Source of the DNA: Eledone cirrhosa
Taxonomy: Eukaryota
Assembly: GCA_964016885.1 (NCBI GenBank)
Contig: OZ024762.1
Span: 19,158,001-19,222,000 of the forward strand
DNA: 64,000 nt
Direction: 5' to 3'
How positions within the stretch are numbered: position 1 is the first letter of the stretch; every line of letters starts with the position of its first letter. The notes beneath the pieces were generated by a model. It was not told the origin of the DNA. It made no database searches and saw only the letters and a list, made by a program, of their open reading frames with translations. Shown in pieces: positions 35,075 through 35,716 of this stretch. A program made the position numbers and the translations under genes.

Positions 35075-35136
<62 letters not shown>

Positions 35137-35283
35137 ATTAAAATACTGGAGCGTGTTGGAGTTAAACACCCTCTTCGTATTATAGAAATGACAGTAAAAG
35201 GTATAGCTCAATGCAGTTAAACAGAGCCAAAAAATTAACAGAGTAAAACAAAGAATCCTTTAATACATCAAAAGTTTTTATTA

Positions 35284-35321
35284 GCCGACAATGTTTCGTC
35301 CTATTAAGGACTCATCAGGGC
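35284..35321 (-). ncRNA. Minimal type I hammerhead ribozyme motif (minus arm)
   Basis: Exact reverse complement of 35552-35589. Confidence 0.88.
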
Positions 35322-35551
35322 AATCAAAACAACAAGAAGTAATATCGGCAGATACAAGCCGTTGCTTTGGACTATATTTGTAATATGTTTCTTAATGTTA
35401 TATACATCCTTAGTTATTCTTATTATATATTTTTATTATTTTTATTTTTATTTTTATTATATATTTTTGCAAGACTTTAGTGTATGTACACTCCATATTC
35501 TTCGGAGCTTCCGGCTTGCATCTGCCGATATTACTTCTTGTTGTTTTGATT

Positions 35552-35589
35552 GCCCTGATGAGTCCTTAATAGGACGAAACATTGTCGGC
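35552..35589 (+). ncRNA. Minimal type I hammerhead ribozyme motif, canonical core
   Basis: GCC-CTGATGA(35555-61)-GTCCT-TAAT-AGGAC-GAAA(35576-79)-CATTG-TC^GGC; GUC cleavage after 35586. Confidence 0.9.
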
Positions 35590-35716
35590 TAATAAAAACG
35601 TTTGATGTATTAAAGGATTCTTTGTTTTACTCTCTTAATATATATATATTTAGCAATTGGAAAGACCAACGGAAACATTGTTCCCTCGGTCCGATTTGAC
35701 GAAAGTCGATCGTTCC

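Follow-up and report, generated by a model that had tools for sequence, protein, structure and literature searches.

Anatomy of the locus

Two copies of a hammerhead ribozyme motif lie on opposite strands of Eledone cirrhosa contig OZ024762.1, within a pair of inverted arms bounded on either side by (TA)n runs. Coordinates refer to the window, i.e. the whole 64,000-nt stretch of DNA that was analysed. The features of the locus are as follows.

35086..35133, no strand: (TA)n run adjoining the long 3' end, the presumed target
35134..35233, minus: 100-nt 3' extension (tail), on the minus copy only, ending 153 nt past the cut site
35139..35184, minus: stem-loop of the tail (7-nt loop, rich in A and C), candidate start element for reverse transcription
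35234..35361, minus: left arm, read from the arm comparison as an inverted 5'-truncated pseudo-LTR copy
35284..35321, minus: type I hammerhead, cut after 35287
35362..35511, plus: spacer, the T-rich, 3'-UTR-like upstream part of the plus copy, repeated in the genome
35512..35639, plus: right arm, the 3' part of the plus copy, stopping 51-53 nt past the cut, tailless
35552..35589, plus: type I hammerhead, cut after 35586
35591..35596, plus: AATAAA directly past the cut site, found after the neighbours' hammerheads too
35640..35649, no strand: short (TA)n run next to the tailless 3' end; beyond it lies an unrelated SINE fragment (35650-35714)

The arms (35234-35361 and 35512-35639) are 128 nt each, 98% complementary and 150 nt apart, confirming the 128-bp inverted arms and 150-bp spacer of the preliminary description. 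They are mismatched at exactly three mirrored pairs of positions (35354/35519, 35273/35600, and 35239/35634), all outside the hammerhead, as had been described for a motif identical in both arms with a few differences around it. The tail previously placed on the minus strand is likewise present, the minus copy extending 100 nt further (35233-35134) and stopping at (TA)n. Tail and hammerhead arm are contiguous in one sequencing record (run X4 record 10, 35133-35306, 1 difference), and the tail region 35134-35233 is highly repeated according to sequencing-run matches. The tail folds at -20.6 kcal/mol (z -2.62; equalled by 3/200 shuffles). By analogy with PMC11167929, its stem-loop may be the element at which reverse transcription starts.

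What was called the spacer belongs to the plus copy as its upstream flank and is no separate loop between terminal repeats. Because it is repeated, and because X1 records 4-6 extend from 35483-35497 into the right arm, the plus copy comprises 35362-35639 and the minus copy 35361-35134. Both copies are 5'-truncated and meet head-to-head at their 5' ends, with their 3' ends facing outward onto (TA)n. No listed sequencing record spans the junction at 35361/35362, so the inversion rests on the assembly. A target-site duplication is not readable within (TA)n, and Pfam gives no match for the 94-aa frame that crosses the locus. From its sequence, the AATAAA is a possible poly(A) signal.

The hammerhead motif

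The plus-strand motif at 35552-35589 (cut after 35586) reads GCC-CTGATGA-GTCCT-TAAT-AGGAC-GAAA-CATTG-TC^GGC and is identical to that at 35321-35284 on the minus strand (cut after 35287). It consists of a 3-bp stem I, extendable past a bulge, CUGAUGA, a 5-bp stem II and GAAA. Helix III in both hammerheads is 2 bp (A15.1-U16.1 and C15.2-G16.2) with an AUU loop, in agreement with the stem III of only ~2 bp noted earlier. The identification as a hammerhead is borne out as type I by the core boxes and stems I-III, open at stem I. Rfam model RF00163 (Hammerhead_1) matches both copies over its full length (model positions 1-45; E 3.8e-5), yet at 31.7 bits against the required 34, and at the gathering score Rfam gives no match in the whole window. 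With a structure-aware type I descriptor covering stems I-III, 6 cores are recovered from the window, both copies included, whereas 100 local dinucleotide resamples give 0 each.

The term "minimal hammerhead", as used in the preliminary description, does not apply in the sense of the min-HHR of Cervera and de la Pena. That class, as described in PMC4209133, is without helix III, carries an extra base after CUGANGA and has a helix II of 7-8 bp; the motif here has a looped helix III, no extra base and a 5-bp stem II. It is a hammerhead variant with a short near-palindromic helix III, the AUU making the palindrome imperfect. GUC, the cleavage triplet given earlier, is correct for both copies at this locus but does not hold throughout the family, as GUU replaces it in many relatives. 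Stem II (GUCC/GGAC) is presumably reminiscent of retrozyme-type motifs.

Pattern scans of viral sequences returned three loci (L001-L003), none of them relatives, with different flanks and a longer helix III. These hammerhead-like motifs, at position 301 of viral contigs, have the same stem II base and unrelated flanks. Metagenome pattern scans gave 0 matches.

The repeat family and divergence of the arms

Four of the 23 listed sequencing runs were compared with the locus. At 80% likeness, 35130-35720 is matched by 4509 X1 contigs and 6633 X21 reads, many of which fall on the SINE piece (35650-35714). Over 35150-35329 the X1 depths add up to 21,000-119,000, a value that shows a big repeat family and is not a copy number. 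Depth is lower in the upstream spacer (23,000-39,000 in the covered bins, 35362-35420 and 35470-35511, with 35422-35468 skipped as repeat), as 5' truncation would give. One 31-letter contig of X17, guessed to be an RNA run, matches at <90% likeness.

Four letters common to both arms are absent in most relatives (35256/35617, 35261/35612, 35276/35597, and 35325/35548). At the three positions where the arms differ, X21 reads carry the other arm's letter in 163/163, 238/240 and 182/190 cases. The shared rare letters together with the private differences indicate that the arms came from one source and changed afterwards. Within the family C17 is T in 194/226 X21 reads on the right arm, so that GUU is frequent in one part of it. 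Of the rows listed (40 of 117) none lies within the core boxes or within stems I and II; they include a 3-nt insertion in loop II, and C17 is often U.

Piles of X21 read ends at 35233, 35236 and 35655 were considered as element ends and rejected, since these positions sit on AATT; those at 35137, 35324 and 35639, one letter off AATT, were likewise dismissed. The piles are read as restriction sites of a RAD library, the enzyme being inferred.

Folding and predicted activity

For a monomer (35540-35600) the active fold is predicted at -6.1 kcal/mol against a minimum of -14.2 kcal/mol, i.e. an inactive fold is preferred, and the pairing probability of both helix III pairs is ~0. For a tandem dimer the double-hammerhead fold, at -20.6 kcal/mol, lies 8.4 kcal/mol below two monomer folds (-12.2 kcal/mol) and still above the minimum of -29.7 kcal/mol. 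In the dimer helix III is formed by self-pairing of ACAUUGU, giving 6 bp around a U-U mismatch. The folding model behind these values ignores non-canonical core contacts.

The earlier suggestion of cleavage as a dimer is thus favoured by the modelled energies and does not carry over to the locus itself. Because the two copies lie on opposite strands, no transcript holds two sense copies and no cis double hammerhead can form; for a dimer, a tandem copy at another site or another RNA molecule would be needed. In whole-locus RNA of either strand the core is predicted to pair with the antisense arm at a probability of at least 0.997. The hammerheads of the locus are therefore probably silent, as read-through RNA would form a 128-bp duplex burying the core. 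Such a duplex would more likely be a source of small RNA than a ribozyme. In active tandem copies, cleavage would probably occur only as a double hammerhead or with the help of the element's protein.

To take a lack of cleavage as refuting the motif, as was proposed, is too strict, given precedents of weak or absent activity. The Schistosoma mansoni PLE (Penelope-like element) motif is inactive as a monomer and of low activity as a dimer (PMC4209133), and the anole PLE motif does not cleave without its protein (PMC11167929).

Neighbouring hammerhead loci

Three inverted hammerhead pairs lie within 2.3 kb (35134-35639, 33562-33931, and 33979-34413), each with one longer copy and with (TA)n at both ends. 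The pair at 33562-33931 has arms 1 nt apart and a ~95-nt tail on the plus copy. Its hammerhead (33736), with 11 bp in stem I, 10 bp in stem II and a helix III that is a perfect palindrome, makes it a better bench candidate than the 35134-35639 locus and renders doubtful the ranking of the latter as the best candidate for testing. By eye its stem II resembles the Saccoglossus rows of the Hydra clade in Craig File S2.

The third hammerhead family occupies three loci that have a tail boundary in common: the inverted pair with tail at 33979-34413; 38774-38983, where a short inverted copy adjoins a plus copy that consists of the tail only and starts at the homologous boundary; and 63497-63675, a plus copy cut off inside stem II. 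Two single hammerhead-like motifs that differ in sequence from these, at 61256-61310 (minus) and 63378-63427 (plus), end 45 and 55 nt before (TA)n, respectively.

Downstream of the cut, 33562-33931 and 33979-34413 are related to each other (0/500 shuffles as good). The 35134-35639 locus shows no detectable relation to these neighbour families after the cut (347/500 and 458/500 shuffles score as well), and homology of its tail with the neighbours' tails was rejected, none being found. Of the window's ten hammerhead-like copies, six stop 45-55 nt and four 138-153 nt past the cut, before (TA)n, against a background of 3.8% and 2.9% for these end windows in 30-42 kb; the end windows were picked after inspection of the data. 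The ten include the 34226/34086 pair and 63378 (pattern-only) as well as 63497, truncated inside stem II, and exclude a stemless pattern match at 38048. Two such end classes imply tails of ~90-100 nt, compared with the published 30-40. No PLE tail near 100 nt was found in published PLE accounts, as far as these, largely open literature, were available.

Other features of the window

The window is eukaryote-like, with (TA)n runs, satellites and remnants of LINE-type reverse transcriptase, and its repeats seem octopus-like. The LINE-type matches are to RVT_1 at 45860-47653 (plus, E 8.6e-32) and 42412-42948 (minus, E 2.4e-19) and to zf-RVT at 6859-7443 (plus, E 9.7e-08). The SINE fragment at 35650-35714 is the 3' part of a very abundant SINE-like repeat, fuller copies of which (30762-30966 and ~41945-42137) have a tRNA-like head by eye and no tRNA gene by ARAGORN. 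The fragment contains GAAACATTGT, 10 letters of the hammerhead 3' half, probably by chance. An abundant dispersed SINE-like repeat of ~190 bp, often in tandem or inverted pairs, occurs at 3020-3449, 26264-26829, 36808-37125, 38563-38760, 42953-43383, 52860-53423, 53947-54165, and 57958-58352.

AT-rich minisatellite arrays with GC down to 4% and strong GC skew occupy ~13000-21500, 39900-41850 (period ~41-49) and 48000-52000. A 3.6-kb direct duplication (5579-9176 and 9377-12982, 96.9% identity) flanks a 200-N gap (9177-9376), and probably reflects an overlap left unmerged or the presence of both haplotypes in the assembly.

Comparison with Penelope-like elements

The locus is probably a dead insertion left by a Penelope-like retroelement with an endonuclease, closest to those of the Hydra clade. 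What is left would be the non-coding 3' end of the element (pseudo-LTR, pLTR): the locus works like such an end and probably is one. As in these elements, a hammerhead lies in the non-coding 3' repeat, and a 5'-truncated copy adjoins an inverted 5'-truncated copy head-to-head. The tail on one end, at 100 nt, is longer than the 30-40 bp given for PLEs in PMC8557442, which speaks against the assignment; inverted 5'-truncated copies with a one-sided tail are described in PMC8557442 and PMC3846280. Pairs of hammerheads on opposite strands, 100-700 bp apart, have been tied to truncated PLEs (PMC4209133).

The PLE hammerheads of PMC4209133 share with the locus a U-rich 5' flank, a 3-bp stem I, CUGANGA, stem II, GAAA, a short palindromic helix III, NUH and an AU-rich 3' flank. 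They are presumed to work as dimers, and some of them have a small palindromic helix III. Against the PLE reading, the hammerhead here is without the extra base that follows CUGANGA (A9-G10.1) in most PLE motifs; the tabulated rows for Marsupenaeus and Saccoglossus(2) are so too. Penelope/Poseidon elements of Adineta vaga and Anolis, in the accounts of PMC3846280 and PMC11167929, resemble the locus in the head-to-head inverted pLTR, the one-ended tail, two start sites near an AC-rich stem-loop and AT-rich targets. They differ in a tail of 31 bp or 30-40 bp, compared with 100 nt, and in a pLTR that runs into the start of an ORF, whereas the locus is without an evident coding frame past the hammerhead. 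No ORF for a PLE reverse transcriptase or GIY-YIG nuclease is linked to the family, as judged from the window ORFs and a locus that is truncated. Searches of 9 window ORFs against Pfam gave two RVT_1 and one zf-RVT, all distant from the locus and none PLE-type.

Affinity with the Hydra clade, for which the locus is a candidate, is suggested by insertion into (TA)n, a type I hammerhead near the 3' end and a near-palindromic helix III with an odd loop. The clade targets (TA)n, and 19/25 of its families have an odd-length helix III loop (PMC8557442); (TA)n insertion, seen here at both ends, is not diagnostic, as other clades do likewise. In the same source Penelope-13_HM has a 5'-truncated inverted copy with a hammerhead on both strands. 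The helix III segment of the clade is mostly 9 nt, unlike the 7 nt here (3+1+3), and the tabulated hammerhead of Hydra-1_oBim from octopus does not match the motif. From the coordinates of PMC8557442, Hydra consensus ends fall 30-48 nt past the cut in 10/24, 63-97 nt in 4, 114-153 nt in 9 and 355 nt in 1, a count that leaves out Penelope-18_Hma and the minus-strand row of Penelope-13_HM. The four ends between the two classes and the one at 355 nt speak against this reading, as does the short end class of 45-55 nt here, which only borders the Hydra range of 30-48. These comparisons are of tabulated motifs and coordinates rather than of aligned consensus sequences. A search with six short motifs (from the locus and its neighbours) of the Craig supplement yielded one useful match, the hammerhead of Hydra-2_Amil, and three chance matches in coding DNA.

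Alternative explanations

An improbable alternative is that the locus is a non-LTR retrozyme, or a non-autonomous hammerhead repeat of ~300-400 nt, that makes a small circular RNA and was inserted by a PLE protein acting in trans. Metazoan non-LTR retrozymes (PMC7229834) share with the locus a type I hammerhead, a weak helix III and a short non-coding repeat. The lack of any ORF found, the compact stem II and the hammerhead without an extra base fit such an origin, and a preprint (10.64898/2026.07.22.740005) derives retrozymes from PLE pLTRs. The sense length of 378 nt (35362-35639 plus tail) also falls within the 170-400 nt of PMC7229834, but it is a minimum unit length only. Retrozymes there are head-to-tail arrays giving circular RNAs, whereas the locus is inverted, truncated and tailed, and neither a tandem direct repeat, a head-to-tail unit nor another family copy is present in the window. 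Stem I, 3 bp plus a bulge, contrasts with the 6-bp helix of canonical motifs, and the unequal 3' ends and 5' truncation are marks of PLE insertion.

Selection by the host, with the core kept for its function at this site as a ribozyme or hairpin-RNA locus, is very unlikely. The cores are identical in both arms and the locus would form a strong hairpin (about -245 kcal/mol) if transcribed. The identity, however, was rejected as a sign of selection on the core, three differences missing 38 of 128 nt with p=0.34; the family is highly repeated, the same layout occurs next door with unrelated sequence, and the core is predicted to be buried in duplex. Still less likely is a DNA transposon of the MITE or fold-back kind, with terminal inverted repeats of 128 bp and TA as its target, for which near-perfect inverted arms bounded by TA would speak; the arms are not terminal, one copy is 100 nt longer, and other members of the family carry the supposed internal spacer as the flank upstream of the plus copy. 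The hammerhead core in the arms and the single or tail-only copies nearby also fit retroposition rather than such a transposon. We give as little weight to a fold-back sequencing or assembly artefact on a single copy. Several palindromes do lie close together, and no listed read or contig crosses 35361/35362; but the 3 arm differences go both ways when set against the family, and the two 3' ends, each on a separate (TA)n run, are distinguished by exactly the family-type tail.

Proposed course of insertion

If the locus is a PLE insertion, a GIY-YIG nuclease would have nicked both strands of a (TA)n run, and each 3'-OH would have primed reverse transcription on the element's RNA. One cDNA would have started at a far site, with the tail included, and the other at a near site. 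Both would have stopped early and then been joined, and the three arm differences would be later mutations or copying errors. Two-strand nicking and priming at two sites are modelled on the anole PLE protein, which in vitro cleaves and extends both strands, with two start sites that bound the tail (PMC11167929). Head-to-head copies have also been explained in print by self-priming on an antisense template (PMC3846280), which fits the neighbour at 33562, with its arms 1 nt apart, better than it does the 35134-35639 locus.

Spacing of the 3' ends may point further, in a reading that we rather doubt and hold only tentatively. In (TA)n-targeting Hydra-like PLEs, start sites might lie ~50 and ~140-150 nt past the cut regardless of sequence, leaving a tail of 90-100 nt, with the hammerhead fold serving mainly as a docking point or ruler for the near site and cleavage being secondary. 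The basis for this is that three families share the spacing while one of them is unrelated downstream to the other two, and that the published Hydra consensus ends also fall into two similar groups.

Significance

The hammerhead itself is one more family added to the thousands of PLE hammerheads already known, and its layout has been published. The long tail together with the fixed spacing is the only part of the locus that merits further work. As a clean record of PLE insertion, the locus holds short and long 3' ends from one event, echoed by neighbouring families. It gives predictions of two start sites for the Hydra clade, whose insertion mechanism is apparently unstudied in the published work available. 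If true genome-wide, a fixed distance from the hammerhead would bear on what PLE hammerheads are for.
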